From: a virus
Lineage: Duplodnaviria > Caudoviricetes
DNA: 64,000 bases
Virus record (IMG/VR): IMGVR_UViG_3300028591_000127
Location: 45,072-109,071 of that record
Direction: 5' to 3' (one strand)
Part shown: in pieces, positions 9,329 to 57,307 of the stretch
Layout of the letters: each line of letters opens with the position of its first letter
How positions within the stretch are numbered: the first letter of the stretch is position 1
Translations under genes and position numbers: made by a program
Notes under the pieces: generated by a model
What the model was told of the DNA's origin: nothing
The model's input: the letters and a program-made list of their open reading frames with translations, nothing else
Databases searched by the model: none

Positions 9329-9332
9329 AGTC

Positions 9333-10097: not shown

Positions 10098-10101
10098 ATT
10101 A

Positions 10102-31680: not shown

Positions 31681-34239
31681 TTAGACCTGACCGTCAAACT
31701 CCATACCCATATCAAAGGCATTACTATAAACCTTGATATACTTAAGAGCACGGTTGAATCTGATTTCTACCAGTACATTAACGCGATTTGCTCTAGCATC
31801 CTCGTCTGTGTTGTTGGTTTCGTCAATAGTAATACGATAAGCATTGATGGTATAAGTCATCGGGATAATCGTACTTTTAAACCAATAATCAATAACGCTA
31901 GTCATATCAGCCCATACAGCAGGACCAATATGGCGACCAATAAACTGACGAAGCAGCAAAGGGATAGCTTTATTGATACGAATCCACAAACGGCTGTTAG
32001 CTTCATCACTCATAATGTCCTTGCTGGTATACTTGGTGTAGTTATCATTCCAAGTCCAAGCACTAATCTGAGTATCCCACTTAACAGTATTGATTTTCTT
32101 AGTAAGAAGCAACTGACGAGTCTTCTTATTAAACTCAGCAACCGGACGCTGGAACTGTGCAAGACCGTTAGTCTGACCCAGCATAGGAGCAAACTCACGA
32201 CCAAGACGACGGTTACGACCTACGGTCTCCCAGTACATAGTGCCAGGAGATACATAGTACTTCCAACCTACGGTACCAGTATCAATATCCCAAGGAGCAG
32301 ATGCATACAACTTATAAGAATCCTGACTTACTCTAGCAATTGAATTACCAATAGCCAGATAGTTAGTACTATTAATTGTTGAAATGGGGTAGAAGTAATT
32401 CTCATTGTTAGCAAGATTAGCCATATAAGACTGAACCATTGGGCTAGTACAACCAAGGTCAGCAAGACCCTCGGTGGTATAGACTTCATCAAGAGCAATC
32501 TGATCGAAGGCCTTGAGAATATCAGTATCAGTGACGTTCAGGATAGCACAGTCAGTGGGATCAATGCTCAAGTTAACAAAGATCTCTTCAGGATCCAGGT
32601 CAGATACGGTCATACCATCAACATACTCATAGTAAGTACCCTCGACGTCCTCACCAATCTTAGCGATTTCATTGGCAGCGGGAGCAATAATATGAGCATT
32701 CAGGAATTGCAGAGACTTCTCAACGTACTTTACGCTAAGAGAACCAGTATTCTCAATCTCAGTCCAAGCAGCGGTCTCAGTTTCATCAACTGTAGTGACA
32801 ATATACTTGTAGTACTTAGCAGTCTCTTTACCAACAACAGCTACATTACCAACGCTGGGAGTAGCAATATTAGCAAGATCAGCCTTAGACTCCAAAGGAT
32901 TGCTGTCATCATCAGTCGTAATAGCATTCTCCTTCTGAGTTGAAGTAAGATCCTCAGCCTTTCTAAGAGCCCAACCTCTAGTTTGAGTGCTGGGAAGATA
33001 ACCATAATAACCAAGACCAAGCTCAGTCAGGTCATCAGGCATCGTCAGACTGATCATGTTCAGAAGATTGTTGACTTCTGTAACAGTCATGTCACCACGA
33101 CCCAGGATATTACCAACATTGAAGTAAACAGTCTCACCATTTACACTAGGATCCAGAATAGCAATCTCATAGAAGTCACGATACAGATTATCCTCTGAGG
33201 GAGTAGCAGTACCGCCGTTTGTGAAAGTATCCAGAACAGAGCTGAGAACTGTGTAGGGAGACTGACCACCTGCATAAGAGTCAGGAGCACTGAGTTCCTT
33301 TGTTACTACTGCATCATGGTTGAAACGACGAATTCTTGCGCGAAGAGGCGTAGAAGAATTGTAAGAGTTAGAAGCATAGAATGCAGGAGCATCAAATCCA
33401 GAGAACGTTGTGCCATTGAGGTCCAAAATTTTCTGAGAAGGATTAGCTGGGGTCCAGTCAGGCTCACAAGTAACTACATAAGCCAGTCCATTTGGACATC
33501 TAGAATCAGTAGTATCAATCAGGTTAGCACCAATATACAGCTCCTCGAATACAACAGAGACAGCATTCTTATACTCGCTCTTAGTCGTAATCAACTGGGA
33601 ACCTCTCTCATCTGAATAGAATTTATAGTCGGGGCTGAAGAACATAGAAGACTCATTAAGAGTATCAACAAGAGTCTCCAGATCATCAACATAGACGTCA
33701 TATTGAGCACCAGCATCGGTAGTTCTATTACCAAGAATACCAATTCCACTAATATTAATGCTCCAACCATCAGAAGAGTGCTCTGCGCTATCCTTGTCCA
33801 TATCAATAACGATCTTTACAGGGGCAGAGATCTTCTTAAGAAGCTGACCATCTCTCAACAGATAAGTATTGGTTTTGTCAGTCTTGGACAGTGCCTTAGA
33901 GAAGAAAATATCCTTAGCCTTTGAAGCTCTAACACAAAGGAGAGTATTAGAGCCAGCCAGACGGTAAGCATTCAGCCACATCGTCTCAGCCATATCACTA
34001 ATATCACCATCGTACAGACCATTCAGAGACTTGATATAATCCTTCGTGAGATCCTTAGAAGAATAAGTAGAAAGGAACTCAGACTGACTAGAAATCAAGG
34101 TAGGAATACCGGGACCTGCATCACTAATGAGAACACAACCAATAATCAGGCTCTCACCAGCAGTAGGATTGACCGGCATCGACTTAATTTTTTCTTGAAC
34201 TTTTATATACGGTTCAAGAGTTTCGGTCCATTGTGCCAT
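31681..34239 (-). CDS. Tail sheath protein
   Basis: 852 aa; C-terminal RLWIRI...YRITIDETNNT...NRVNVLVEIRFNRALKYIKV is the classic sheath C-domain; strongly biased codons. Confidence 0.9.
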   Translation of the reverse strand: MAQWTETLEPYIKVQEKIKSMPVNPTAGESLIIGCVLISDAGPGIPTLISSQSEFLSTYSSKDLTKDYIKSLNGLYDGDISDMAETMWLNAYRLAGSNTLLCVRASKAKDIFFSKALSKTDKTNTYLLRDGQLLKKISAPVKIVIDMDKDSAEHSSDGWSINISGIGILGNRTTDAGAQYDVYVDDLETLVDTLNESSMFFSPDYKFYSDERGSQLITTKSEYKNAVSVVFEELYIGANLIDTTDSRCPNGLAYVVTCEPDWTPANPSQKILDLNGTTFSGFDAPAFYASNSYNSSTPLRARIRRFNHDAVVTKELSAPDSYAGGQSPYTVLSSVLDTFTNGGTATPSEDNLYRDFYEIAILDPSVNGETVYFNVGNILGRGDMTVTEVNNLLNMISLTMPDDLTELGLGYYGYLPSTQTRGWALRKAEDLTSTQKENAITTDDDSNPLESKADLANIATPSVGNVAVVGKETAKYYKYIVTTVDETETAAWTEIENTGSLSVKYVEKSLQFLNAHIIAPAANEIAKIGEDVEGTYYEYVDGMTVSDLDPEEIFVNLSIDPTDCAILNVTDTDILKAFDQIALDEVYTTEGLADLGCTSPMVQSYMANLANNENYFYPISTINSTNYLAIGNSIARVSQDSYKLYASAPWDIDTGTVGWKYYVSPGTMYWETVGRNRRLGREFAPMLGQTNGLAQFQRPVAEFNKKTRQLLLTKKINTVKWDTQISAWTWNDNYTKYTSKDIMSDEANSRLWIRINKAIPLLLRQFIGRHIGPAVWADMTSVIDYWFKSTIIPMTYTINAYRITIDETNNTDEDARANRVNVLVEIRFNRALKYIKVYSNAFDMGMEFDGQV

Positions 34240-34272: not shown

Positions 34273-35019
34273 TTATCCAACTTCAACAAGATAAACAGGG
34301 TAACCCTCTTTGAGGAATCCAGTGGCAATTTCCACAATTGTTCTCCTATTTTGATTTGCGTTGGAAATAGTGGATATGTTAATATCGTTATATTTGTTAG
34401 ATGCGTTGTTCGATCTGATTTGATATTTACCAGACAAGCCCTTCAAGATCCTATCAGTCAATCTTTGTAGCTTCGGATTTTTAATAGTATTCACAAGCAT
34501 ATTGAAGTCGGCACCATTTTTAGTGACAACAATACAGACAGTACATTTCATTATGTTAGCCCTCTTAGGATCTCTAGTATAGTCAAGATCTTCGACATAA
34601 CCAGCATTAGAGAGATCACTAATAACGCCTTTCATTAAGCGATTATCTGCATCAGACTGTGAAATCTTTTTATTAATATCTTTAACAGCACCAACAAGAG
34701 CACCAAGAGCAGCACCAATTATAGTACTAGTCCCAACAAAGGCCATATTTTGAAGAGCAGAAGTTTTATATGTAGTCTCTTGTTCTTCTTTCCTATCCTT
34801 TCCAGAACCTGAAATCTTTGTTCTTGTTTCGGTGTTAGCCAGATCATTATATTTTTCAATACCCTTCTTAAAGAAGGCGGGACCAGATTTGGGAACTTTC
34901 AGATTAGATGGCAGATTTAATCCACCAGCACCAAGAGTTCCCAATGTTGCACCAACAGTGGCCCCCTTTAACGCACTAGACGCAATATAACTACTAAAAC
35001 TTTTATACTTGAACTTCAT
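34273..35019 (-). CDS. Leader-bearing glycine-zipper protein
   Basis: MKFKYKSFS; GATVGATLGTLG and GAALGALVG helices. Confidence 0.7.
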   Translation of the reverse strand: MKFKYKSFSSYIASSALKGATVGATLGTLGAGGLNLPSNLKVPKSGPAFFKKGIEKYNDLANTETRTKISGSGKDRKEEQETTYKTSALQNMAFVGTSTIIGAALGALVGAVKDINKKISQSDADNRLMKGVISDLSNAGYVEDLDYTRDPKRANIMKCTVCIVVTKNGADFNMLVNTIKNPKLQRLTDRILKGLSGKYQIRSNNASNKYNDINISTISNANQNRRTIVEIATGFLKEGYPVYLVEVG

Positions 35020-35036
35020 ATTGCGTCAGAATTGAA

Positions 35037-35447
35037 TTAGTCAACAATCTCCTGAATGTAGTAGTTCTTTTGTTCTGTAACCGTCTCATCCTCAGTCGGA
35101 ACATAAGTACCCTCAGACTCACCTTCCTCGTACCAACCGTTATTCTTGGGATTAGTACCCTCGACAGCCAGGTCATCAGCAGAAACAGCAGTATACTTAT
35201 ACTCAATCTCAGTCTTATACTCAGCATCACCATTATAGATAACACTCTGAGCGTCTTGAGACAGGAGAGTACGATCACCGACCAGATCCTTGTTAACCAG
35301 AACAGTGAAATCCGGATCAGCTACTACCTTCTCACGAAAAACGTCAGTAGATGCAGGATTAGTCATGATGCTGTTACCAGTATAAATATTATTCTCACCA
35401 AGAACCTCCCAATCGGTAGAGGTAATAAAATCATTCGTAATAGGCAT
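35037..35447 (-). CDS. Acidic virion accessory/decoration-like protein
   Basis: 136 aa, highly biased codons, no leader; C-terminal NP-G-Y-G-Y-P-D-YY module. Confidence 0.6.
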   Translation of the reverse strand: MPITNDFITSTDWEVLGENNIYTGNSIMTNPASTDVFREKVVADPDFTVLVNKDLVGDRTLLSQDAQSVIYNGDAEYKTEIEYKYTAVSADDLAVEGTNPKNNGWYEEGESEGTYVPTEDETVTEQKNYYIQEIVD

Positions 35448-35473
35448 AATTTTATAAAATTATTGTTTATTTG

Positions 35474-35809
35474 TTAGTTAAAAAGCCGACTTATTAATAA
35501 TAGTCTCTTCTTTTGTTGTTTATTTTTTAGAGAATCTCTTTCAAGTTTTCTAAATTTAACTCGATCTTCAAGATCCTCTCTTCTTAATCGTTGTTCCTCG
35601 ATCAAAGAATCATTAACTTCTGCCATAGCGTCAGTTAATTTACCCATTGCGTCGAGTTGTTTCTTCTGATATTCAGTCGCAGCCTTATGTCTCTTAGAAT
35701 TAACTGCCAAATTAGTAGCACTAACACCAAGAGTAGCTAAGGAAATTGGGATAGTTGGGTGCTTCTTTAAGACGTCAGCTGCTGAGAATCGTTTAATCCG
35801 TATAATCAT
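35474..35809 (-). CDS. Leader-bearing protein (hydrophobic helix plus coiled coil)
   Basis: MIIRIKRFS leader. Confidence 0.7.
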   Translation of the reverse strand: MIIRIKRFSAADVLKKHPTIPISLATLGVSATNLAVNSKRHKAATEYQKKQLDAMGKLTDAMAEVNDSLIEEQRLRREDLEDRVKFRKLERDSLKNKQQKKRLLLISRLFN

Positions 35810-36257
35810 CTGTTCTTGAAGTTTTATCGATAAATGATCTTCTGAGTCTTCGTCTAGCCCCAGTCTTTGCCGTTTCTAAACTCTCATTATACTTTTTATT
35901 TATCTTAGCTTGTTTTCTACCAACAAGATAAGCTATCCCGGAACCTAACCCAGCACCAATAAGGGACCCTCTTAAAGCTCCTCGTCCAAACCCTCTTCCT
36001 GCTGATTTAAGTCTAGATATTTTTGTTTCGCCTTTTTTAAGATAAGCACCTTTCTTAATAGCCCCTTTAATAAGACCACGAAGAGATTCATAACCTCCAA
36101 TACCTAGTGCACCAAGAGTTCCAGAGAGGGCAATATCACCACCCCTGACTTCTGTTCTGGGCTCTTCGGCAAGAACATCAGAATCTTTCATTTCCATCAG
36201 TTCACTAAGATCATCACTCTCAGTGAACCATTTTCTTCTTAGTTTAATGCTTGCCAT
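35793..36257 (-). CDS. Leader-bearing glycine-zipper protein (paralog of 46529-47017)
   Basis: MASIKLRRKWFT; MKDSDVLAE motif. Confidence 0.7.
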   Translation of the reverse strand: MASIKLRRKWFTESDDLSELMEMKDSDVLAEEPRTEVRGGDIALSGTLGALGIGGYESLRGLIKGAIKKGAYLKKGETKISRLKSAGRGFGRGALRGSLIGAGLGSGIAYLVGRKQAKINKKYNESLETAKTGARRRLRRSFIDKTSRTDDYTD

Positions 36258-36259
36258 AA

Positions 36260-37264
36260 TTATTGAACTTGCCCAGCTTTTGCGTTTTCATATTGATAGG
36301 CGTTCTTATCTACTGTATTAAAGACTTTCTTCGCAGTATTTTCAGCACCAGACCAAGCAAGAGTACTAACACCCATCAAAGGAACAGCAGTAATAAGGTT
36401 TGCCGCTGTCTTATTCTCGGCTAAATATTTACCACGACCAGCTAACCAGGTACTACCGTTTTCCTCACCAAATTTCTGTAATCCTTGAGCGAACTTATTA
36501 ACTCTCTCCGTTCCACCAAGTCCTAATGAAGCGAGGTTATTAACGGTTCCTGAAATCGTTTGCCCAGGAGTTTTGAAAATTTGCCATTCTTTTGGTTTGG
36601 TAGCCATCTTAGCAAATTTACCTATACCAGACAGAATGGAGTAGGATCTCTGCTCTCCACCAGTAGCGGCCATCTGATCCTTTAAATTATTCTTCTCGGC
36701 ATAGTAACCAGCAAGAGTTGGAGCAGCAAAGAGAGTCGGCATAACTGCATTACCTGCTAATTTGCCCCCCACTTTCTTTAGGACAGATTCTCCACCTTGT
36801 TTTCCCGCTGCAGTAGCTGAAACAGGGACGTCGGCATACTGTTGTTCCTTCATTATCAAGTTGCCTGCCTCATCAAACTGCATACCACTCTTTTTCATAT
36901 CGTGTTGGATGAATTTATTGACCCCATAACCTGCGGCAGCCAATGAACCACCCATAATAGCAGTATTTGTAATCTCCTTACCAAAAGCTGATTTACCTGC
37001 CTGAAATAGTGTCTTTCCTGCCGCTAAGAGACCTCCACTATAAGACCTTTGACTGAAGTTCGTGGCGGCGGCAGGATGAGCATTGATAGCTTTATTGATC
37101 TTCTCAAGTCTTTTGTTTTGTTCCCTCATAAGTTCTTGTGTTTTTTCATCTCTTTCTTCCTGTTCAGAAGCATTTACAGAGGAATTAATCAAATCCGCCC
37201 CAGTTACCACCGTTCCAGCCACGCCAATAGCTGGCCAGAAGAAGTTTTTTTGTTTGAACTTCAT
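36260..37264 (-). CDS. Leader-bearing polyprotein-like membrane protein
   Basis: MKFKQKNFF; internal QRSYS, QQYA and QRSYS motifs separate hydrophobic modules. Confidence 0.7.
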   Translation of the reverse strand: MKFKQKNFFWPAIGVAGTVVTGADLINSSVNASEQEERDEKTQELMREQNKRLEKINKAINAHPAAATNFSQRSYSGGLLAAGKTLFQAGKSAFGKEITNTAIMGGSLAAAGYGVNKFIQHDMKKSGMQFDEAGNLIMKEQQYADVPVSATAAGKQGGESVLKKVGGKLAGNAVMPTLFAAPTLAGYYAEKNNLKDQMAATGGEQRSYSILSGIGKFAKMATKPKEWQIFKTPGQTISGTVNNLASLGLGGTERVNKFAQGLQKFGEENGSTWLAGRGKYLAENKTAANLITAVPLMGVSTLAWSGAENTAKKVFNTVDKNAYQYENAKAGQVQ

Positions 37265-37281
37265 AGCAGTTTATTTTTATT

Positions 37282-37578
37282 TTACATCCCAGCGTCTTTA
37301 AGTCCTTGGCCTAGTCCCTTTGTTAGCTTAGATCCTGCAGCATATCCTAATGCTGGACCAAGAATTGGAGCTACCGCTACACCAATGGGACCACCCAAAG
37401 CTGCCACAGCACCACCGATAGCAGAACCCATAGTACCTGCACCAATCAAACCGCCGGTAACTCTACCAGGGAGAGAGTCCAATGCCTGACCGGTACCAGA
37501 AGCTATACCCTTAGCTGTATCTGTAACACCATCCATCAGGCTGAAATATTTCTTTCTTTCTATCTTAATACTTGCCAT
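37282..37578 (-). CDS. Leader-bearing glycine-zipper protein
   Basis: MASIKIERKKYFS then long Gly/Ala-rich hydrophobic segments. Confidence 0.7.
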   Translation of the reverse strand: MASIKIERKKYFSLMDGVTDTAKGIASGTGQALDSLPGRVTGGLIGAGTMGSAIGGAVAALGGPIGVAVAPILGPALGYAAGSKLTKGLGQGLKDAGM

Positions 37579-37581
37579 ATC

Positions 37582-37812
37582 TCAATCCTTCATAATATCT
37601 TGAACGTTAATACCTCTACGTAATTCTGAATTCATTTCTTTCTGCTCTTTTCTTATGTCTCCTACTCGATGTAATTCTCTTTGAGCAGTTGACATTCTAC
37701 CAAGACGATCAAAATCTTCATCATACTTCCTTCCCCTTGTAAAACCAAGATTTGTAGCGGCATTAGTATTTAATGTTCCAATTCTAGAATAATTTTTTCT
37801 TAAGAGGATCAT
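37582..37812 (-). CDS. Small leader-bearing basic protein
   Basis: MILLRKNYS. Confidence 0.65.
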   Translation of the reverse strand: MILLRKNYSRIGTLNTNAATNLGFTRGRKYDEDFDRLGRMSTAQRELHRVGDIRKEQKEMNSELRRGINVQDIMKD

Positions 37813-38375
37813 TAAGCGTCAAGTAAGTAAATCTTATAGTCTATACCAAAGGGAAGAATACTTAAGGCTCGTATAGCATCGTTCATATTTTTAAACTCCA
37901 GAACAAGCTGTCTGGACTTCTTATCGTACTTAATAGCCTCGCCCAATAAGCGACCGACCTCTCTCTTAATCTCTACTTCCTCTGGGTAGGCGAGGGCAGA
38001 CATCAAGGGATCAGGTCCTTTACCCTTGCCCTCTCCGTTATCCTTCCTATCCTTACCAAATACTCCGGCTCCAATAATAAGTTTCAATTTTCCAAATCTT
38101 TCGTCATGATACTCACTCGGAAGTCTGACATCATCGGGTAGTTTAGCCTTTGCACCAATCTTAATATACATTCGATAAGTATCCTTTCCAAAGATAGAAG
38201 AAGAGATAACAAAACGTTCGATCACTACGTTATTTCCTTTGAGAATAGGCAAGAGAGCGCTAGTATTAATGACGGGAAATCTGCTCCTATCATTATTAGT
38301 ACGTTTCATCAGCTCGATATAAAGACTTCTCATTGCATCATACTCAGAGAACGTCTTTTGCCTAAATTTTACCAT
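37812..38375 (-). CDS. Leader-bearing protein
   Basis: MVKFRQKTFS. Confidence 0.7.
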   Translation of the reverse strand: MVKFRQKTFSEYDAMRSLYIELMKRTNNDRSRFPVINTSALLPILKGNNVVIERFVISSSIFGKDTYRMYIKIGAKAKLPDDVRLPSEYHDERFGKLKLIIGAGVFGKDRKDNGEGKGKGPDPLMSALAYPEEVEIKREVGRLLGEAIKYDKKSRQLVLEFKNMNDAIRALSILPFGIDYKIYLLDA

Positions 38376-40486: not shown

Positions 40487-41929
40487 TTAGAAGCCAACCT
40501 TAAAGGTGACGCGCTGAACCAGCTCGGGAGCCATGTAACGAAGACCCTCCTGATAGTAGATACCGCTCGTCATCTGAGTCGGATTATTGTAGTTACCTAC
40601 AGTAGGAGTATCGGTCAGAGGCATATAAATACCACGAGCCAGAGGAGCCATTTGACCATCAGCAGTCTTGTGGATAGCATAGAAAGTACCCTCACCAGCA
40701 GCCTCGACTACGTCAGTCGAACGCAGAACGGGGACACCATTATACCAACCAAGCAGGTCACTGATATAGCTCATCTTGTCATTGCGCTCCCACTTGCCAA
40801 TAATACCGGCCTTCTGGAACTGATTAGCAGCCTGATTACCAGCAATATAAGCAGTGGTCGTAACACCCTTAACAACCTTGCTAGCCAGAGCGGTCTCAAC
40901 ATTAATCAGGTAGCTATCAAACAAATCAACTCTTGAACGATAGTCCATGAAGTGAGAGCTCAGACCAGTAGAAGTGCTGCTCAGGTCGAGATCTTGCATA
41001 GTATCTCCAACATAGCCATTCTCCAGAGTCTTAACCATAGCGCCGTTAATGCACTTGGTATACAGCTCGCGCAGCTTGTTGAACAGGAACGTAGCCATGT
41101 CAGAACCAGTAGCCTTCTTCATTGCACCCAGAGCAGCGATGTCATACTCAGCCATCAGCATATCGGGAACAGTGTTCAGACCAATCTGTTGCATCTTAGC
41201 GAGGAAACGCTTGTCATTTGCATGGCTATTGTCAGCACCAGTCGTACAGCTGGGAGTACCAACTGCATCCTCCTTACCAACAATCGTAATCTTACCACTG
41301 GCAGATACGGCATTAGTCAGAGTAAAGTCAACCTTACCGTTCAGGTAGTTCAAAGTACCGGCGGTAATAACACCAGCAACAGACAGGAAATGACCCTGAC
41401 CATCATCAACCAGCTCATACTTAACGTTACCAGCATCCTGGATCTTAACACGTACAGTACCAGGGATCAGCTTACGACCAATCAGATAAGAATAGGCAGT
41501 CGTAGTGCCATCAACGGTCAGGTCAGACTCAAAGTGACCCATAGTCTGAACATCGTTATAGTTATCCGGACCGAGGTTGGGGATAACAGGACGCAAATCA
41601 CTAACGCCCAGAACGTCAAACCAATAGAACAGACCGTTCGGCTGATCAAAGTCACGCTCAATCGACATGTAACCAGCGAAAGAGCTAACATAAGAAGCAA
41701 CAGAAGCGTTGAAATACTGAGTGCTCAGCAGCGGGGTCTCTGCATAACCAGAGAAGTTCTTCTGAAGCAGGTTACCGTTCATAATGTTGTTGCCAAACAT
41801 GTCAGCAGCACGCGAGAACGTCTTAGCATACTCCATACCACGGAGTCTAGCATCCTCTGCAGAAACAGAGCTATTACGAAGAGCAACACTCATCTCGGGT
41901 GTGCTCATGAAATTCGAAAACTGATTCAT
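40487..41929 (-). CDS. Major capsid protein (T4 gp23-like HK97 fold)
   Basis: 480 aa after the scaffold; DQPNGLFYWF and GIYMPL correspond to the gp23 QPM..PTGLIF and YCPYVPL motifs; strongest codon bias. Confidence 0.85.
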   Translation of the reverse strand: MNQFSNFMSTPEMSVALRNSSVSAEDARLRGMEYAKTFSRAADMFGNNIMNGNLLQKNFSGYAETPLLSTQYFNASVASYVSSFAGYMSIERDFDQPNGLFYWFDVLGVSDLRPVIPNLGPDNYNDVQTMGHFESDLTVDGTTTAYSYLIGRKLIPGTVRVKIQDAGNVKYELVDDGQGHFLSVAGVITAGTLNYLNGKVDFTLTNAVSASGKITIVGKEDAVGTPSCTTGADNSHANDKRFLAKMQQIGLNTVPDMLMAEYDIAALGAMKKATGSDMATFLFNKLRELYTKCINGAMVKTLENGYVGDTMQDLDLSSTSTGLSSHFMDYRSRVDLFDSYLINVETALASKVVKGVTTTAYIAGNQAANQFQKAGIIGKWERNDKMSYISDLLGWYNGVPVLRSTDVVEAAGEGTFYAIHKTADGQMAPLARGIYMPLTDTPTVGNYNNPTQMTSGIYYQEGLRYMAPELVQRVTFKVGF

Positions 41930-41954
41930 TTTATAATATTATGTATGTTAATGT

Positions 41955-44375
41955 TTATTTATATTGAAGCCAAGAGATCAATGTATCATCTTGGGCACTC
42001 TGACTAAATGTTCTCTCGGAGAACTGAGCCTCTTTAATATCGGGCTCCATATTGGGAGCGGGCTGAGCCTTAGCATCCATAACTTGAGCAACAGCTTCAG
42101 CAGCTGCGGCATTGATACTCTGAACAGCAGCAAGAGCCTTATCCTCAATCTCCTCAACAGTATGAGATTCCTCCTCTACGGGAGCTTCTGCAACTACCGG
42201 CTGGGCAGCAGGAGCAGTGGCAGCAGGCTGGGGAGCAATTTCTTGACCTGTAGCAGACTGTGGAGATGCTGCGGCAGGAATAACTTGCTCAGTGAAGAAC
42301 TTGGCAATAGGATCGCAAGAACTGTAACCCTTCTCCTCAATCTCCTCTTCACGAGTCTTCTCAACCTTCAGGTCCTTAGTAAGCTCATCAGCCTCTTCCT
42401 CCGAGATAGGATTAATGTCGAGAACCTCATCCTTAATCTCAGCCTTATGGAAATCGCCAGTCTCCTTATCCTCAATTACTGCGGTAGTATCATCGATAGG
42501 AGTAATGATCTCATTGTCGTTCTCAATCTGCTGACCATCTTCGATAGCATCCTCAATTTCGTCCTCACTAGCCTCATCACTGAACAGACGAGCCATATAA
42601 TTGGTCATCTCTTCACTCTCAGAGAAGAACTTAGTCCCCTTGTCATTTACATAAGAGTAGTTCTTAATCTCACCCTCTTCCTCAGCAAGAGCATTTTCAG
42701 ACTCCTTATTGGGAGCTACAACTACATCCTCAAACTGGTCATCAGCATCATCTTCGTCAATCGGATGAACAACAATCATATCATCATTGAGAATAGTAAC
42801 CTTAGACAGCTCACCAGTCTCCTTATCCTCAACAATAGCGCTCTTAGCATCTACCGGAGTAATGATTTCATTGTCATTCTCAATCTCGGTGCCCTCTTCA
42901 ATAGCTTCCTCGATGTCACTCTGCTCTGCCTCATCACTGAACAGACGAGCCATATAGTCGGTCATCTCTTCATTCTCAGAGAAGAACTTAGTTCCATCTT
43001 CGTTTGAATAGTCGAAATAATCAGAGAATTCCTTCTCTTCATCCTCGTCCTCATCAACAGGTGCCTCATCCTCATAATCATCGGCCTCTTCAATAGCCTC
43101 ATTCATATCAGAATCAACAACGATAAGATCCTCACCATCAAGAACTTCCTTAGCATCCTCAGGATCCATCTCTTCAAGAATAACATCCTCACCAGAAATC
43201 TTAGCCTTGGTAAATTCTACACCATCCTGAACAATAGCAGTAAGAGCATCGATCGGGGTTACAACACCACCTTCAAACTCAACCTCATGACCACCACGAA
43301 TAGCATCATAGACGGCATCAACAGTATCAGTAGTACCGGCCTCTGTCTCTGAGAACATACGAGACATCATAACAGTATTGTCCGTATAGTAACGTGCAGT
43401 ATAGAAACAAGGACAATCATAGTAAGCAGAGAACTCCTTCTGCTCCTGAGACTCTTCAACCTCACCCTCCTCAGGATTAGCGCCAAGGCTAACCAACAGA
43501 TGATAAGCGTAGTCACGAGCAGCTTCGGGGTCGTCACAAATCTTAATAGCCTCAACACCATCAGCCTCAAGACGGGCCTGAAGTGCCTGAGCAGACTCAA
43601 GATCATACTCCTGTGCCTCTACAATGACGTGATCATAAGGCTGAACACCAACAATAATATAGGGAAGATACTGGCCCTCACAGAAAGCCTTGCTATCCAA
43701 CTCAGTAACTTCCATATCGTTATCGTCCAGCTTAACCTTAACCTGATCACCAGTAGCTTCACTGGTAACAACAACGGCATTATCTTCATCGGCCAACTTC
43801 TCAACCTTCAGATCGCCAACCTTTGCAGTCTCCTCACTCTCAATAACTTCAGAGAAGAGATAATCAACAAACTCCTGAGGCATGGAGAAAATTTTCTGCC
43901 AAGCGTCATTCTCAGAGCTAATGCTGAACTGCTTACCCTCATCCTCACATTGACAGGGAGATGCACCACAATTAGGACACTTCTCACCGAAAGCTTGATC
44001 AGCTACGGTCTCAGCTTTTACACCGAGCTTACTATCATCAAAATGATCACTAGCCTTCTCATCAGGAGCACCAGTAGCGGAGCCAGGAGTAACACCATCA
44101 TCAGACGGGTGGGCAAATCTCTCAAGCTGTCCATCCGGAACGGCAATCAGGTCATAAGTCTCAGCTTCCTCAGGATTACGTGATGCGACTGTGATCTCAC
44201 CAGTTTCTTTATCGGTAATAGCTACATCACCATTACCTTGCTTTTCATACTTAACCTCTTCGGTATCAACAACACCATCCTTCTCAGCGGCTTTGATGTC
44301 GTTACCTACCTGTTCCTTGAGCTCAGCAGGTGTCTCCTCAGAAAACATGAGCTCCATCAATCTTGTATTCTTCAT
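41955..44375 (-). CDS. Acidic prohead core/scaffolding protein with internal repeats
   Basis: 806 aa, very D/E-rich, just upstream of the MCP; repeated domains separated by [KR]-x-[FY]-S motifs. Confidence 0.7.
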   Translation of the reverse strand: MKNTRLMELMFSEETPAELKEQVGNDIKAAEKDGVVDTEEVKYEKQGNGDVAITDKETGEITVASRNPEEAETYDLIAVPDGQLERFAHPSDDGVTPGSATGAPDEKASDHFDDSKLGVKAETVADQAFGEKCPNCGASPCQCEDEGKQFSISSENDAWQKIFSMPQEFVDYLFSEVIESEETAKVGDLKVEKLADEDNAVVVTSEATGDQVKVKLDDNDMEVTELDSKAFCEGQYLPYIIVGVQPYDHVIVEAQEYDLESAQALQARLEADGVEAIKICDDPEAARDYAYHLLVSLGANPEEGEVEESQEQKEFSAYYDCPCFYTARYYTDNTVMMSRMFSETEAGTTDTVDAVYDAIRGGHEVEFEGGVVTPIDALTAIVQDGVEFTKAKISGEDVILEEMDPEDAKEVLDGEDLIVVDSDMNEAIEEADDYEDEAPVDEDEDEEKEFSDYFDYSNEDGTKFFSENEEMTDYMARLFSDEAEQSDIEEAIEEGTEIENDNEIITPVDAKSAIVEDKETGELSKVTILNDDMIVVHPIDEDDADDQFEDVVVAPNKESENALAEEEGEIKNYSYVNDKGTKFFSESEEMTNYMARLFSDEASEDEIEDAIEDGQQIENDNEIITPIDDTTAVIEDKETGDFHKAEIKDEVLDINPISEEEADELTKDLKVEKTREEEIEEKGYSSCDPIAKFFTEQVIPAAASPQSATGQEIAPQPAATAPAAQPVVAEAPVEEESHTVEEIEDKALAAVQSINAAAAEAVAQVMDAKAQPAPNMEPDIKEAQFSERTFSQSAQDDTLISWLQYK

Positions 44376-44392
44376 TTGTTTAATTATGTATT

Positions 44393-45187
44393 TTAGTTCT
44401 GAATAGTAACTTGACTACCAGATAGCTTGATTACGCCCTCCTTTGCTAAGAGATCAATAATGTCCTCTGGGGCATCAGGATAGCGCTCTCTAATTATTTT
44501 GATAAACTCTTCAATACCAAAGCAGTTATTATTGGGATACTCAAGTCTCAAGTCATCACAAATATGAGAATCCTCTAGCCAATTCTCTTCTTCGCTAAAA
44601 ACTCTCGTATTAGGATTAGGCATAATACCATGAGCCTTCTTGATAATCATAATACCCTTCTCAGGAAGAGCACCACGATTTTCTAAACCTTCAATAACTT
44701 CCTCCGGACAAACCTCGTGATTCATGATTTCGGGGTCCAACTCTAAGGTCTTGGTAACTGAAATAGTTATTTTTGAGAATAAACGCTCTGTGGCATAAGC
44801 GATTGGACTAATACTGACCTGGTTGTTATCACTAATCCTAGCATAACCGCGCTCGATCATTTCCTCTCCCTTATCAGAGAAAATCTTCTCAAATTCATCA
44901 CACTCCAATACTTCACCAGAGAATTGCTTCAAATTCATCTCATATTCATTCTTTGGAATATCAAATAAAGATTCTCTAGTTTCAGTTTCTTGCTTCTTAT
45001 CTGCTTTAGGGAATAAGGCAAGATTAAATCTCTTACCACCACACTCAGGACAAATAATACTACTTGTCGATTCTGCAGTCTCTAAAACACATCCGCAATC
45101 TTTACAAATGACTTTTCTCAGACTATTATCAGAAGTGGAAGAGAAAAGCTTCTTTCGTGGGAACAATTTGATTCTACTACTTAACAT
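44393..45187 (-). CDS. Zinc-ribbon prohead-core protein
   Basis: CKDC...CPECGG; KLFS, KQFS, KIFS, RLFS, RVFS motifs; between protease and scaffold. Confidence 0.6.
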   Translation of the reverse strand: MLSSRIKLFPRKKLFSSTSDNSLRKVICKDCGCVLETAESTSSIICPECGGKRFNLALFPKADKKQETETRESLFDIPKNEYEMNLKQFSGEVLECDEFEKIFSDKGEEMIERGYARISDNNQVSISPIAYATERLFSKITISVTKTLELDPEIMNHEVCPEEVIEGLENRGALPEKGIMIIKKAHGIMPNPNTRVFSEEENWLEDSHICDDLRLEYPNNNCFGIEEFIKIIRERYPDAPEDIIDLLAKEGVIKLSGSQVTIQN

Positions 45188-46424
45188 TCTTCTCCTCCTC
45201 CATAATAGACTGTTCTAGGCCCTCTGGAAGTTCATTTGGTCCAAAAACCTCTTCCTCCATTGCCTTAGTAAATTCAATATAAGCTTCCTGAAGATTTTTT
45301 AGTCGCATCGGAGTTAAAGTGCCTCGTTTGGACATCTCCATATAAGCCAGGCGGGCCGGTTGTTGTAATTTCTGACTGGCTACACGAACAGATTTTCCAA
45401 GAGATCCTGCACCAGTCAAAGTAGCAATGGTCTTACCCGCCAGGATCTCGGGAGTAAGCACCTCGAAAATATCAAGAAGATCCGTCATAAAAAGAGACTT
45501 CATAATTTTCAAAGTCTCAGGATCAATCTTTTCTGCGCCACCTGCTTGCTTAATTGCTTGTTTGTACTCTAAAAACAGACGACGCATTCTCATTCTGGGA
45601 GAGAACTTAGCATATCTAACACGCTCTCTAATAGTAGCAACAGAATATGTTCTCTCAGTATCCTCTTCGATCTGAACTGTATCGGCCAACATAGAGTACT
45701 CTTTAGCTTTCAGGATACAGTACTTACCATCAATCTTTGAGGATCTTGCTATCTCAGGATCTACGCCTACTTCATCGACACTAGAGAAGGTCTTTACTCG
45801 AATATCTGAATCCTTAATCGAAAAAGTCTTCTCACCTCTCTTAGTATCTTCATCGTCATAGTAAACATCAGTGATTCGAGCTAAAGGACCGAATGAGGGA
45901 TTTTTTGTGAAATCAACACCCTTCAAAAGTTTAATTCTCTTGCACTCATCAATACCATTTCCATTCGATTCCCAATAAGCGAGAACAACCATAGAACAAG
46001 GCACCTGAACACCAGATTTAATTAAACCCTTCAATCTCTTTATATTCTCGGCAGCAAGACTATCAAAATCCTTCTCATCTAGAATATGAATCAAGGCACA
46101 AAGAAAAGGACCTTCTCCCGGAACATTCTCAATGTAAAACTCCTTGACGTAATGAGTATATGTGGGGACATTTTCACCAACACACAAACCCGCATCATCA
46201 ACTCCAATCTGCTTGCGAAGAAGCTCGGGTTTGCCTATAGAATCAGGAAGTGCAGTAAGACCCCTACCACGATGAGTAAGATATCCAAGACACTCCCTCG
46301 TCTCCATAGAACGCTCATATTCCTCAGAGTTAAGATAGTTTCTTACTACAGTTTCACCAATATGAGATCCATCTGCAGCAAAATGATTGGGACCTAACCC
46401 ACAACATCTTACTCTTACATCCAT
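45177..46424 (-). CDS. Prohead maturation protease (T4 gp21-like serine protease)
   Basis: LGYLTH, VPCSMV and GVDFTKNPSF correspond to the His, Ser and Asp motifs of gp21/HK97-type proteases; synteny. Confidence 0.75.
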   Translation of the reverse strand: MDVRVRCCGLGPNHFAADGSHIGETVVRNYLNSEEYERSMETRECLGYLTHRGRGLTALPDSIGKPELLRKQIGVDDAGLCVGENVPTYTHYVKEFYIENVPGEGPFLCALIHILDEKDFDSLAAENIKRLKGLIKSGVQVPCSMVVLAYWESNGNGIDECKRIKLLKGVDFTKNPSFGPLARITDVYYDDEDTKRGEKTFSIKDSDIRVKTFSSVDEVGVDPEIARSSKIDGKYCILKAKEYSMLADTVQIEEDTERTYSVATIRERVRYAKFSPRMRMRRLFLEYKQAIKQAGGAEKIDPETLKIMKSLFMTDLLDIFEVLTPEILAGKTIATLTGAGSLGKSVRVASQKLQQPARLAYMEMSKRGTLTPMRLKNLQEAYIEFTKAMEEEVFGPNELPEGLEQSIMEEEKNVK

Positions 46425-46528: not shown

Positions 46529-47017
46529 TTAATAAGAATAGCCTTCTCTATTAGTATTATTGCTAACAAAATCCTTGCGCTCACGTCTGTTTGCCTGTCT
46601 CTGAGCATACCCAAGGCGCTGATTGTAAAATTTATTATCCTTGATCTTATTACGATTGGCAAGATATGTACTACCTGCACCAATCAAACCACCAGCAGCG
46701 GCACCCAATCCTAATGCGCCTTTGCCACCACCGAGATAGCCAAGATTCTGAGCAATCTTTGCAGCACCTAAGCCGATACCGGCGCCGGCAGCAGTACCAA
46801 CACCCACCTTAGCATAGTTACCAGCATTACTGCGCTTCTTTTCAGCCAGAATATCAGAATCCTTCATCTTTTTCAGATTATCAGTATCATCCCACTTAGT
46901 ATATTGACGCAACTCCTCAAGATACTGCTCCTCAGTCAGATATTCAGAGTAAGAATACAATCTCTCCTCACCATTCTCATCAATATCAGAGAAAAATCTA
47001 TCAACTTTAATAATCAT
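46529..47017 (-). CDS. Extended-leader glycine-zipper protein
   Basis: MIIKVDRFFSDIDENGEERLYS...; two GxxxG helices. Confidence 0.75.
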   Translation of the reverse strand: MIIKVDRFFSDIDENGEERLYSYSEYLTEEQYLEELRQYTKWDDTDNLKKMKDSDILAEKKRSNAGNYAKVGVGTAAGAGIGLGAAKIAQNLGYLGGGKGALGLGAAAGGLIGAGSTYLANRNKIKDNKFYNQRLGYAQRQANRRERKDFVSNNTNREGYSY

Positions 47018-49445: not shown

Positions 49446-50663
49446 TTAAAGCATATTTTTTAAACCATTAAGGTAATCCCCTGTCTCCTTATAGTTACTA
49501 ATGATAGTGTCTATATCCTTTTCAGACGTTATCCCTCGTAATGATTTTCCTGTAGACATATAGTTCTTACCTAGATCTAGTTTATTTCCATACTTAACAA
49601 GAGCTTTATCAGTAATCACCTTACCTCTAGCCGCATCAATGCCTTTAGATAAACCAGCGCCTAAGAGACCTCCTGTAGCAGCTCCTTTTATCATTCCGGC
49701 ATTTTTCCGAGATCTTACGAAATTATCATACTCTAAAGATCCCTTTTCCAACCCGTATTTATTAATAGCGGCCTTCTTAGCCTTCTTGCCTTCGACCTCT
49801 CTACCAACTAAAGACCCAATCACAGATCCGCCGCCAGACAAGTATTCAGTCTGATGCTTATTAAAATGAGAGAGCCCACCTAATTCTTTAGTAAGCTTAC
49901 CCCTTACGTTATAGAGATCGTTTCCTACAAAGTGTCTAAATTGTTGGGCTAAGATTCTGTCACCCTTGGCAGCAGTAAAAGCAGAGTAATTTCTAGTCCT
50001 AGCAGCAGCCTCAACCACACTATCTACACGATCTAATACAGGCCTGACTACTCTATTAAAAGTTCCTTCAGAGAACCTATCCGCCTGTGTTGAACTAGCC
50101 TTACCGGAAACCATCTCCCTAGCAAAATGCTCGCAGTTATTATTTCTGAGATTATACTGACCGCGATCTTTTCCGATCCAGGATTCGGCCCTTGATACTA
50201 CTTCTTCTGGCGTATAAGGACCTTTAGCTTTCTCTATTCTGAGGGCGCTTCCGTTTGAAAAATGATCTAAGCTTGTATACCCTACATTAGCGGTTCGAGG
50301 ATCAAACTTTTCAGAGCCATATTCAATAATTTTGCCATCTTTACCAACGATACCATAATGTTGATATGCTCCTCGGTCTGCAATAACAATATCACCAGGA
50401 CTCATTGTTTGTCTAACTTGCTCAATATCAGCCTTTATAGGTTTTCCAATATAGGCTTTATATCTTTTTTTCGCATACTTACTACCTGCTCCAAGTGTTC
50501 CACCAATAGTAGCACCGACAATAGCGCCCTTTATTGCTCTTGACTTTTGCTTTCCGTCTTTCTCTTTCCTACCACGAATAAGCTGAGTTGTTGCACCAGT
50601 AATACCGCCAATTGCAGATCCAGTTAGTACGGGTTTTACATAACTAAATCTTTTTACTTTCAT
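49446..50663 (-). CDS. Leader-bearing glycine-zipper protein with LRAT-like (permuted NlpC/P60) domain
   Basis: MKVKRFS; PGD...YQHYGI H-box and YNLRNNNCEHFA (NCEHF) motif. Confidence 0.85.
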   Translation of the reverse strand: MKVKRFSYVKPVLTGSAIGGITGATTQLIRGRKEKDGKQKSRAIKGAIVGATIGGTLGAGSKYAKKRYKAYIGKPIKADIEQVRQTMSPGDIVIADRGAYQHYGIVGKDGKIIEYGSEKFDPRTANVGYTSLDHFSNGSALRIEKAKGPYTPEEVVSRAESWIGKDRGQYNLRNNNCEHFAREMVSGKASSTQADRFSEGTFNRVVRPVLDRVDSVVEAAARTRNYSAFTAAKGDRILAQQFRHFVGNDLYNVRGKLTKELGGLSHFNKHQTEYLSGGGSVIGSLVGREVEGKKAKKAAINKYGLEKGSLEYDNFVRSRKNAGMIKGAATGGLLGAGLSKGIDAARGKVITDKALVKYGNKLDLGKNYMSTGKSLRGITSEKDIDTIISNYKETGDYLNGLKNML

Positions 50664-50669
50664 CTTTGA

Positions 50670-51104
50670 TTAATATCCGAACATATCACGGGCCTTCAGA
50701 CCTCTTATCTGCTTTGCAACAGTATTAGCATTGGCCTCAGACGTCTTACCTGCCTCACGTATACCCTTACTTAATTTCTTAGCACCACGAGTAACCAAGC
50801 TGCTAAGATCTTGTGCAATAGGCTGAGCATTTTTAGCACTTTGCTCTGCTGCACCTGCGTAAAGTTCCTGCATTGCTTGCTTATATCTAACAGCATTTCT
50901 CTTACCCTCCATTCTCATACGGGCAAGAATTCTTTGGCCTTCCGGAGTTTCAGCTAGCTTTTTACCTGCACTAATAATTTTGTCTTTAAGACCAAACTCT
51001 TTTTGAAGATACTGCTCTTCAGTCATATATTCAGAGTAGGAATACAACTTCTCCTCACCATTCTCATCAATATCAGAGAAAAATCTATCAACCTTAATAA
51101 TCAT
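50670..51104 (-). CDS. Extended-leader basic protein
   Basis: MIIKVDRFFSDIDENGEEKLYS... Confidence 0.7.
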   Translation of the reverse strand: MIIKVDRFFSDIDENGEEKLYSYSEYMTEEQYLQKEFGLKDKIISAGKKLAETPEGQRILARMRMEGKRNAVRYKQAMQELYAGAAEQSAKNAQPIAQDLSSLVTRGAKKLSKGIREAGKTSEANANTVAKQIRGLKARDMFGY

Positions 51105-55554: not shown

Positions 55555-56112
55555 TTATAGGAATTCTAGAATTTCTCCTTTTTCTGCAAGATCGTGAATC
55601 TTTTGTTTAAATTTGTTGTCACGGATTTTCTTAAGTTCCTGATATTTGGCATTACCTAATCTAGCCTCATTAGGTAATGCCCAGCCTCGGTGGTCATAGT
55701 CTTTCTGCGTTAATTTTGTAAGAGGACCATTATTTTTACCATAGCTCTGTCTTTTTCCACCAAATATGCTTTTTCTTGAGGCAGATCCAATTTGATTACG
55801 AGCTTTTTCATTTATTCCTTCATTAACCAAATCTTTAGCAGACTGGTTCTGCTTCAAAACTCCAACATCCCAGGTATGATTAATTCTTGGATCGTAATGT
55901 CGAGCCTTTCCTCGTTGAAGTTTCCGGCCTGCCGACCGGATCTGGTCATTAGTAAATCCAAAATTAGTATTTTCTTTAAGAGCTTTCATTCCAATTTCTA
56001 GATCTTTCTTAGCTCTAAGAGCCTTCTGTGCTTTTGAATTAAATTCCCGTTGCTCTACTATTTGATTATTACAGTCTTCAGTAGAAAAAGACTTTTTGCG
56101 TAGTATGATCAT
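55555..56112 (-). CDS. Leader-bearing basic protein
   Basis: MIILRKKSFS...QREFNSKAQK. Confidence 0.7.
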   Translation of the reverse strand: MIILRKKSFSTEDCNNQIVEQREFNSKAQKALRAKKDLEIGMKALKENTNFGFTNDQIRSAGRKLQRGKARHYDPRINHTWDVGVLKQNQSAKDLVNEGINEKARNQIGSASRKSIFGGKRQSYGKNNGPLTKLTQKDYDHRGWALPNEARLGNAKYQELKKIRDNKFKQKIHDLAEKGEILEFL

Positions 56113-56131
56113 AGTATTATTCTTCTTAATT

Positions 56132-56188
56132 AATTAGTCTTCCCGGTCTAATCAAATAGATAGAACTTAATAATGTTCTCCGGGAAGT
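56132..56188. repeat. Structured intergenic repeat, type A, copy 2
   Basis: Matches 49381-49437. Confidence 0.9.
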
Positions 56189-56196
56189 ATAGGGTA

Positions 56197-56724
56197 TTAA
56201 TCGTTGCTCTTCTTACGCTTCTTATGACTCTTGACCTTATGCACGCCATAACCAGTAGCGAGACCTGTAACACCCAAGCCAGTAGTTACGCCAGCAGCGA
56301 TCTTCTTATTTCCCCTCAGCAGCTCACCAGCCTTAAGCAGATTCTTCTCAACAAGACCGGCTTCCTTACTACCAGCAGCCTTTACCGTCTTACCGGCACC
56401 CACAAGAGCTTCTAAGCTACTCTTAGCTTCTTCCTGAGCGGCTAGCCCATTAGCCTTAAGTCGCTTATTTCTAATGACCTCACCAAGCTTACCTGCTCCA
56501 TACATACCAGCTGCGCCGAGACCTGCAGTGCCTAAACCAGCACCTGCGCCCTTAGCGGCAGCAATAGCGGCAGCAAGCTTTGAGTCTTCATCTTCGTCGT
56601 CCTCATTATCACTGAACAACATTTCCAGGTAATCCTCTTCACTAATTACCTCATTTGTAGAATACAGTCTCTCCTCGCCACTCTCATCAATAGCAGAGAA
56701 ATATACATTACGTTTAACCAACAT
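56197..56724 (-). CDS. Extended-leader glycine-zipper protein
   Basis: Start revised to MLVKRNVYFS at 56724; first 47 aa identical to 57416-57973. Confidence 0.75.
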   Translation of the reverse strand: MLVKRNVYFSAIDESGEERLYSTNEVISEEDYLEMLFSDNEDDEDEDSKLAAAIAAAKGAGAGLGTAGLGAAGMYGAGKLGEVIRNKRLKANGLAAQEEAKSSLEALVGAGKTVKAAGSKEAGLVEKNLLKAGELLRGNKKIAAGVTTGLGVTGLATGYGVHKVKSHKKRKKSND

Positions 56725-56779
56725 AGTTTTCTTATTAGTTTTATTGTTTTTTTTAGTAGTAAGGGTACTAATTCCTCCC

Positions 56780-57307
56780 TTACTTATAATATTTATGCAG
56801 ATGCTTCTTATAATCTTCATCTTCTATAGATTTCAAGATATCAGAATATCTCTGCAATCCTCGACGATCAAACTTCTTACTTTTCGCGATCTCCTCTGAC
56901 TCGTTTTCACCGATTTTCTTACCAAGTTTATAACCAAGATAAGAGCTAGCACCTACACCGGCAGCCACACCTGCTGCACCAATAGCAGCCGGAACAGCCT
57001 TACCCTCGCTTGCCTTAATAGCTGCATCAGCGACCCAGGGAGATGCTAGTAAAGCCCCAAGTCCCGCACCAGTCAGAGCACCACTTCTCTTGTGCGCTTT
57101 TTTAAGGGGCTCATAATCATCATTATCAATCGCCTTAATCGTAGCTCTATTTAAAGAGCTAGAACCACCAGCTAAAATTCTATCTGTACCGACTTTATCA
57201 TCGAAGTAAGAAATGGTATCATCATCCAATTTCTTTCTACGCTTGCTCTTCTTACTGAAAAGCTTCGTCTGATCCTCCGAATACTCTTTATGTCTCAATA
57301 TAATCAT
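56780..57307 (-). CDS. Leader-bearing glycine-zipper protein
   Basis: MIILRHKEYSEDQTKLFS. Confidence 0.75.
   Translation of the reverse strand: MIILRHKEYSEDQTKLFSKKSKRRKKLDDDTISYFDDKVGTDRILAGGSSSLNRATIKAIDNDDYEPLKKAHKRSGALTGAGLGALLASPWVADAAIKASEGKAVPAAIGAAGVAAGVGASSYLGYKLGKKIGENESEEIAKSKKFDRRGLQRYSDILKSIEDEDYKKHLHKYYK

Follow-up and report, generated by a model that had tools for sequence, protein, structure and literature searches.

A recurrent [KR]-x-[FY]-S motif as the predicted substrate signature of a gp21-fold prohead protease in an uncultured giant myovirus

A short motif, [KR]-x-[FY]-S, recurs in four consecutive open reading frames (ORFs) of a 64-kb stretch of viral DNA (hereafter the window), the right-hand part of the 109-kb IMG/VR virus record IMGVR_UViG_3300028591_000127. 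With a probability of roughly 70%, this motif marks the substrates of a prohead protease encoded by the phage itself, operating in a T4-like system of core processing and capsid targeting. The genes of the window lie on the minus strand, the four ORFs in question follow the order gp21-fold protease, Zn-ribbon protein, acidic scaffold-like protein and HK97-fold capsid protein, and the region is most likely the prohead-core module of an uncultured giant myovirus. CheckV puts the completeness of the record at 29%, which implies a full genome of probably 350-400 kb. An earlier sequence-only reading of this DNA had listed the motifs and interpreted them as the cleavage code of the prohead protease. 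Every motif listed was present in these ORFs, all on the minus strand, and the interpretation is now backed by protein folds, placement in linkers and a propeptide, conservation, selection at the peptide level, clustering around the head module and a parallel change of motif in a distant clade; the scissile bond within the motif is placed by analogy. The four ORFs and their parts are as follows, with pLDDT denoting the predicted local distance difference test score of the structural models.

45177-46424, minus strand: protease ORF, 415 amino acids (aa), with motifs KTFS at residues 199 and 211, KEYS at 241 and RTYS at 258
45855..46424, minus strand: catalytic domain of the protease, aa 1-190, beta-rich in the model and matching the T4 gp21 fold
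45639..45854, minus strand: linker of the protease, aa 191-262, with KTFS at 45819-45830, KTFS at 45783-45794, KEYS at 45693-45704 and RTYS at 45642-45653
45177..45638, minus strand: C-terminal helical domain of the protease, aa 263-415, a helical bundle in the model (pLDDT 85-93)
44393-45187, minus strand: Zn-ribbon head-core protein, 264 aa, with KLFS, KQFS, KIFS, RLFS and RVFS
41955-44375, minus strand: acidic repeat protein, 806 aa, 27% Asp plus Glu, between the protease and capsid genes
40487-41929, minus strand: capsid ORF, 480 aa, with KTFS at residue 36 and KNFS at residue 57
41753..41929, minus strand: predicted capsid propeptide, aa 1-59, with KTFS at 41813-41824 and the junction KNFS at 41750-41761
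40487..41752, minus strand: predicted mature major capsid protein, aa 60-480, HK97 fold

Occurrences of [KR]-x-[FY]-S were compared with the number expected from 3000 shuffles per protein, and the site coordinates were checked by translation. The acidic protein contains 12 strict sites (KQFS, KIFS, KEFS twice, RMFS, KFFS twice, RLFS twice, KNYS, KGYS and RTFS) where 0.21 are expected, the Zn-ribbon protein 5 where 0.17 are expected, and the protease 4 where 0.24 are expected; no shuffle reached 12, 5 or 4 sites, respectively. Enrichment is 17-57 fold in these three of the four head-core proteins, and the capsid protein has 2 sites against 0.28 expected (about 7-fold; P 0.03). Four further [FY]S sites are found in the acidic protein, as are the variants KAFC and KFFT. 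The large tail and structural proteins that served as the control, of 1106, 1745, 1541, 852 and 723 aa, have one or two sites each, at chance level, bearing out the earlier expectation that the motif would be more frequent in the head core than in tail proteins. Strict sites are confined to flexible or removable segments, namely the linker of the protease, the propeptide of the capsid protein and the linkers of the scaffold-like protein, and sites of the head module hardly vary among relatives whose identity is otherwise 20-60%. An artefact of amino acid composition was considered and rejected by shuffle tests of single proteins, leaders and alignment regions.

None of the four head-core proteins gave a significant match to Pfam or PHROG, so the labels of protease, scaffold and major capsid protein assigned by the sequence-only reading were guesses that required testing. 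The AlphaFold model of the protease, built on 27 homologues (pLDDT 74), is divided into a beta-rich N-terminal domain (residues 1-190), a helical C-terminal domain modelled with confidence and, between the two, a linker (191-262) in which confidence is mostly low. The N-terminal domain aligned with T4 gp21 (5jbl_B) in VIA-align with a Z score of 10.5 and a root mean square deviation of 3.0 Å over 130 of 164 residues (model range 1-180). This was the sole non-helical structural match above Z 6, and a Foldseek comparison with T4 gp21 gave a probability of 1.0 and a template modelling score of about 0.5 on the target; the C-terminal domain returned merely generic helical-bundle matches. Residues H51, H91, S144 and D171 are invariant across the 27 homologues, and H91 and S144, which lie on strands in the model, align with the His and Ser of the annotated head maturation protease of Acinetobacter phage Ab1-TPeters, at an hhalign probability of just 24%. 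The protease label is supported by the gp21 match, and the fold of the model confirms the 415-aa protein as a gp21-type prohead protease. All four motif sites fall in its linker, where the pLDDT is below 50 at residues 192-210 and 244-261 and where three of the four sites are in segments below 55. Across the 27 homologues the residues around the sites vary and the linker changes in length, and at all four sites K or R is present at P3 in 27 of 27, F or Y at P1 in 27 of 27 and Ser at P1' in 24-27 of 27. Summed over the same homologues, the motif count in the linker is 106 (3.8 expected), whereas the catalytic domain, with 2 motifs (2.7 expected), and the C-terminal domain, with 1 (2.8 expected), are at chance level. 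The family comprises at least 173 metagenomic members, many of them on contigs of 90-400 kb, and the gene order of protease, Zn-ribbon protein, acidic protein and capsid protein is kept in 12 of the 14 related loci inspected (all of the syntenic ones). The two most distant loci break this order, one with acidic protein, capsid and protease in succession (L077) and the other without such an order (L076); these two, at 31-32% protease identity the remotest relatives recovered, retain R/K-x-F-S with other leaders, such as M-I-x-F-D-Q-E-T-R-Q-F-S.

Two further features of the protease gene were observed. The proteases of some relatives (L009:9959- and L039:10001-) start with a canonical site, M-Q-I-K-V-K-L-F-S, and the N-terminus of the window protease (46398-46424, minus strand) has R-C-C-G in register with their K-L-F-S. 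T4 gp21 cleaves nine N-terminal residues from itself, to which the N-terminal site of the relatives may correspond by analogy, although we take this only as a lead. In many relatives of 200-400 kb, two short stop-rich insertions, one of about 140 nt and the other of about 165 nt, split the protease gene. Such genes are found at L039:10001-11632 and some 35 loci like it (L039-L075), and also at L016:10001-11411. The first insertion is located directly after the strand carrying the catalytic Ser and the exon pieces are colinear with the intact gene. Small self-splicing introns within an essential head gene are one possible identity for these insertions, and insertion elements are another.

The model of the 480-aa protein (pLDDT 85.8) shows an HK97 fold with an insertion domain. 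Its structural matches are T4 gp23 (Z 18.2, model residues 79-479), phage S6 (Z 16.3) and phage P1 (Z 16.1), and Foldseek matched it to the P1 head with an E value of 3.6e-19. The earlier label of major capsid protein is upheld by this fold, with T4 gp23, P1 and S6 as the closest structures, and on the evidence of the model the protein is a T4/P1-like HK97-fold capsid protein. Three to four helices are modelled within residues 2-50, followed by the sole disordered stretch of the model (52-64, pLDDT <50), which separates these helices from the first structurally aligned core residue at about 78 and which contains KNFS (residues 57-60). At this junction, 48 homologues with a mean identity of 26% have F or Y in 45 (94%) and S or A in 42 (88%), with A in 9. 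The family was traced to about 21% identity and its alignment has only three invariant columns. Over the 48 homologues, motifs number 53 in the N-terminal parts, where 4.8 are expected, and 9 in the mature parts, where 8.2 are expected. By analogy, the mature N-terminus is predicted to be S60, giving SGYAETP (SGYAETPLLSTQYFNASV...), or S39 if the junction site is unused. In the hhalign alignment with P1 gp23, coverage was limited to the central part of the protein, and the known P1 cut could not be placed by sequence; the T4, P1 and HK97 cuts, when transferred by linear offset from the structural alignments, map between the two candidate sites, near model residues 40-50. Among cultured phages, a distant capsid homologue was found only in one Acinetobacter phage, one Cobetia phage and two Escherichia phages. 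In the first of these, Ab1-TPeters (PP763253.1, locus L078), the homologue is the protein encoded at 8911-10344, annotated as 'hypothetical protein' and adjoining the annotated head maturation protease. It was recovered with an hhalign probability of 99.3% and aligns N-E-N-F-S↓G at the junction (here and below, the arrow marks a known or predicted bond), which makes Ab1-TPeters a cultured case in which the aromatic cut can be checked.

The scaffold label for the 806-aa protein derives solely from position, acidity and repeat architecture; the protein is a putative scaffold or core protein, and is here called scaffold-like. The Zn-ribbon label was based on CxxC...CxxC pairs conserved in 12 orthologues, together with weak Pfam Zn-ribbon matches below the cut-off. 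Orthologues of both proteins in 11 related IMG/VR loci have 9-18 sites (scaffold-like) and 4-8 sites (Zn-ribbon), in aligned columns; these columns are conserved in 12 phages, and the surrounding acidic linkers change fast. Homologues of the Zn-ribbon protein start with two leader-like sites, which in the window copy read KLFP and then KLFS, the second alone being strict.

The motif is also found at the N-terminus of many small proteins. In the window, the motif starts at residues 2-12 in 14 ORFs; 0.54 are expected, and none of 500 shuffles gave more than 4. Of the 33 ORFs in the remaining 45 kb of the record, only one has an N-terminal motif. These leaders of roughly 9 residues follow the consensus M-[IV]-[IVK]-[LFI]-[RK]-x-[KR]-x-[FY]-[S/A/G/T]. 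Because their synonymous codons vary freely, with Ser encoded by both TCN and AGY, the constraint acts on the peptide and not on the DNA; a promoter, a translation element or any similar signal at the nucleotide level was rejected on the same grounds. As with the T4 targeting sequence, a short N-terminal peptide is shared by unrelated proteins and ends in the presumed site of the protease, and the tetrapeptide of the leader recurs in the protease, the scaffold-like protein and the capsid propeptide. In a complete 353-kb relative (G001), 12 of the 16 strict and 25 of the 38 relaxed leaders lie within 60 kb around the protease gene, and motif density peaks at 5.3 per 1000 aa around the head module as compared with about 1 elsewhere. 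Leader-tagged genes of the window include the following.

34273..38375, minus strand: leader-tagged genes downstream of the capsid gene, with MVKFRQKTF↓S, MILLRKNY↓S, MASIKIERKKYF↓S, MIIRIKRF↓S and MKFKYKSF↓S
46529-47017, minus strand: leader-tagged small protein, with MIIKVDRFF↓S ... EERLY↓S
50670-51104, minus strand: close paralogue of the 46529-47017 protein, a small protein with two sites
55555..57307, minus strand: leader-tagged genes upstream of the head core, with MIILRKKSF↓S at 56112 and MIILRHKEY↓S at 57307
57416-57973, minus strand: leader protein with two sites, MLVKRNVYFS ... EERLY↓S

Four of the tagged proteins (46529-47017, 50670-51104, 56197-56820 and 57416-57973, all on the minus strand) contain two sites 12 residues apart, in the form …[RV]-[FY]-F-S…EE[KR]LYS. 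The leaders of the 56197-56820 and 57416-57973 proteins are near-identical, and the ORF call of the former seems to be extended N-terminally, its true start probably being at 56724. A larger tagged protein of 405 aa (49446-50663, minus strand) begins with M-K-V-K-R-F-S and has an LRAT or NlpC-P60-like domain (Pfam PF04970, E 4.5e-18), making it a candidate for an enzyme delivered with the virion.

A motif distributed in this manner could also serve without being cut, as a docking signal that binds the scaffold, core proteins, capsid N-terminus and cargo to a common receptor in prohead assembly. The receptor could be the inner surface of the capsid, the portal or the helical domain of the protease, in a manner like that of encapsulin cargo-loading peptides. 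The multivalent repeats of the scaffold and the N-terminal place on many small proteins suit recruitment equally well, and the leader is set apart from the internal sites by additional conserved hydrophobic and basic positions (M-I-I-L-R), which suggest a second, targeting function. Docking does not as readily explain why the sites are located exactly in the linker after a gp21-fold catalytic domain and at the disordered capsid junction, where known relatives are cut, or why the pattern suits the subsites of a protease, with a strict aromatic residue that follows a basic residue two positions earlier and precedes a small one. It is also harder to picture a receptor for a motif contained in the capsid protein itself. 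We therefore regard an uncut docking signal as an unlikely explanation of the motif.

With the motif read as a substrate signature, the scissile bond would be F↓S, by analogy with the P3-x-P1↓P1' geometry of gp21-type and herpesvirus proteases. K or R would occupy P3, Phe or Tyr P1, and a small residue P1' (Ser; less often Ala, Gly or Thr); the near-invariance of the aromatic residue and the replacement of Ser by Ala, Gly or Thr find their explanation in this geometry. Herpesvirus assemblin sites are [VLI]-x-A↓S. The assemblin system shares the protease fold superfamily and the P3-x-P1↓Ser geometry with the system described here, and differs in having Ala at P1, a eukaryotic virus and no leader-tagged cargo. 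The replaceable Ser also bears on a different explanation, in which the motif would mark a serine for modification by glycosylation or by a kinase. Basophilic Ser/Thr kinase sites have the form [KR]-x-x-S, which the motif formally fits. However, homologous sites can have Ala or Gly in place of Ser (9 of 48 capsid homologues have A at the junction, and there are leaders ending ...FA, ...FG and ...FT), the aromatic residue is by contrast almost invariant, and no kinase was seen in the module, making serine modification the least probable of the alternatives considered.

We infer the cutting itself, the bond cut and the packaging of the tagged proteins, and the sequence of events would be as follows. 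The protease would act inside the assembled prohead, where it would cut its own four linker sites, shedding the C-terminal helical domain and giving a catalytic fragment of about 22 kDa. It would chop the scaffold-like and Zn-ribbon proteins into small pieces, including acidic scaffold fragments, and would remove about 59 residues from the capsid protein. It would also trim the leader of about 9 residues (M-I-I-L-R-x-K-x-F↓S) from many small proteins, whereby cargo would lose 6-12 N-terminal residues. The leader would double as a targeting signal, like the T4 capsid targeting sequence.

Leaders of comparable form are removed by a bacterial enzyme, the cysteine protease Prp, which cleaves MLxx[DN]LQ[FL]F↓A from ribosomal protein L27 (PMC9405229) and removes the leaders of the capsid and scaffold proteins of staphylococcal phage 80alpha (PMC5744158). 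The formal likeness lies in an N-terminal leader of about 9 residues with Phe as its last residue and a small residue after it (PMC9405229; 80alpha PMC5744158), and in the presence of the signal on both scaffold and capsid proteins. A host protease such as Prp could in principle cut the motif, but several observations render this highly improbable. The phage has its own gp21-fold protease with four conserved sites, neither the record nor its two complete relatives gave a match to PF04327, and no other Prp, S77 or S78 protease was detectable in these sequences. Prp is a host enzyme of unrelated fold with the specificity LQ[FL]F↓A, whereas the motif, with K/R at P3 and a variable P2, is unlike L-Q-[FL]-F and differs at P2-P4. 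The host probably does not bear Prp, as the Bacteroidota-type host that we infer is outside the phyla listed with a long L27 and Prp (PMC9405229). This host assignment is suggested by the lack of Shine-Dalgarno enrichment, with 4-mer cores at 15% of starts in the window phage and 8% in the 353-kb relative versus 11% in random sequence. That relative has terminal repeats and only 6 tRNA genes. A scan of bacterial genomes matched a single 1-kb contig of a metagenome-assembled genome and gave no prophage or host clue.

Several results weigh against the proposal that the motif is the substrate signature of the gp21-fold protease. The protease lacks the Pfam Peptidase_S77 (PF03420) signature, having no Pfam match at E 0.1 or better; six-frame searches of the record and two complete relatives gave no S77 or S78 match; and a tblastn search with the protease against 50,697 GenBank phage records found no relative. 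The motif is not depleted in the folded domains of 27 protease and 48 capsid homologues, and there is thus no signal of avoidance. The homologues are mutually related, such that shuffle statistics over the alignments overstate independence. Finally, Asp or Glu follows the motif Ser in about 59% of the sites of the scaffold-like and Zn-ribbon proteins, and a cut of the Glu type, F-S-E↓, is conceivable at a subset of sites. As a conserved reading, F-S-E↓ fails, with Gly after the Ser at the capsid junction and S, T, V or I at two of the protease sites. The signature that is conserved and enriched is [KR]-x-[FY]-S and not the [LIASG]-x-E of cleavage after Glu.

A variation on the motif was found in a distant capsid clade (about 22% identity), in which the junction reads I-A-N-F-S↓G. 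The acidic protein of this clade could be read on one contig (L103:2-3291), which is too short to include the protease, and is encoded just upstream of the capsid gene. It has 10 occurrences of [ND]-[FY]-S against 0.51 expected and 2 of [KR]-x-[FY]-S against 0.53, and in the scaffold-like protein of the window the pattern is reversed: the K/R form occurs 12 times (0.21 expected) and the N/D form twice (0.43 expected). The flavour of the motif therefore shifts jointly in two substrates, as expected of a single co-evolving reader. A scan of viral contigs with the distant capsid group found nothing; the contigs of this group were mostly too short. On balance, we lean towards a switch of P1 from Glu to Phe/Tyr with a basic P3, combined with a 9-residue address-and-cut leader that makes the cargo set readable across a clade of megaphages with genomes of 350-400 kb, which probably infect Bacteroidota. 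The set would number from about 16 (strict) to 38 (relaxed) proteins per genome, among them the LRAT-like enzyme, and a sister clade would have drifted to N-[FY]-S by enzyme-substrate co-evolution.

The closest known counterpart is found in T4, in which gp21 is located in the core, is activated by self-cleavage, degrades gp22, gp67 and gp68 to peptides, trims the leaders of internal proteins and removes 65 residues from gp23 (PMC9958956). The two systems share the protease fold (Z 10.5), a capsid protein closest to gp23 (Z 18.2), an acidic core protein, here predicted to be cut multiple times, a protease predicted here to process itself, a leader, about 9-10 residues long, at the start of numerous small proteins unrelated to each other (in T4, the capsid targeting sequence of IPI-III and Alt) and an N-terminal capsid propeptide, of about 60 residues here as compared with the 65 removed in T4. 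They differ in the predicted specificity, with Phe/Tyr at P1 and K/R at P3 in place of the Glu and Leu/Ile of T4, and in the 150-residue helical C-terminal domain behind a four-site linker in a protease that Pfam S77 misses by sequence. The predicted tagged set is also much larger here, with 14 strict members in the window and 16 strict or 38 relaxed in the complete relative.

The giant myoviruses phiKZ and SPN3US likewise have many head proteins and a gp21-like protease (gp175 and gp245, respectively) that removes N-terminal propeptides and its own C-terminal propeptide, as is predicted here. SPN3US gp245 cuts A-x-E↓ and, like the protease proposed here, favours Ser at P1' (PMC10052503). In contrast, these enzymes cut after Glu (A/S/G-x-E), and their propeptides are often 20-254 residues long, without a common short leader. 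No sequence similarity of the window protease to phiKZ gp175 or SPN3US gp245 was detectable in PHROGs or among GenBank phages, and PDB sequences, searched with a profile made from the protease alignment, yielded no match. In phage P1, which has the protease Pro and whose capsid is among the closest solved structures, an N-terminal propeptide is removed and the mature protein starts with Ser; gp23 is cut at M-L-E↓S-V-A-A-E-M (PMC9024508). The P1 system differs in this Glu-type cut (M-L-E↓S), in a propeptide of 120 residues and in having no separate scaffold known. Literature text searches found no published description of the motif, the clade, the leader strings or aromatic-specific prohead proteases. 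As judged from its genes, the window would encode a T4-type system of protease, scaffold and targeting leader with a different, still only predicted, specificity.

Outside the head core and the leader-tagged genes, two tail genes were weakly recognisable, which marks the phage as a very divergent myovirus.

31681-34239: tail sheath
20520-21119: tail tube

The tail and structural gene block further contains an ORF for a GIY-YIG homing endonuclease (8012-9328, minus strand; Pfam E 4e-6, PHROG homing endonuclease E 3e-21), which also has a weak head-tail connector-like stretch.

If the motif is indeed the substrate signature of the prohead protease, one could predict from sequence alone which head proteins are processed, and probably packaged, in a whole clade of uncultured megaphages, and would have concrete peptides to seek in rumen and gut metaproteomes. 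The compact 9-residue tag could be tried as a means of bringing foreign proteins into capsids, as with the targeting sequences of T4 and P1. Specificity for an aromatic residue at P1 would be added to the gp21/assemblin family, the characterised phage members of which cut after Glu.

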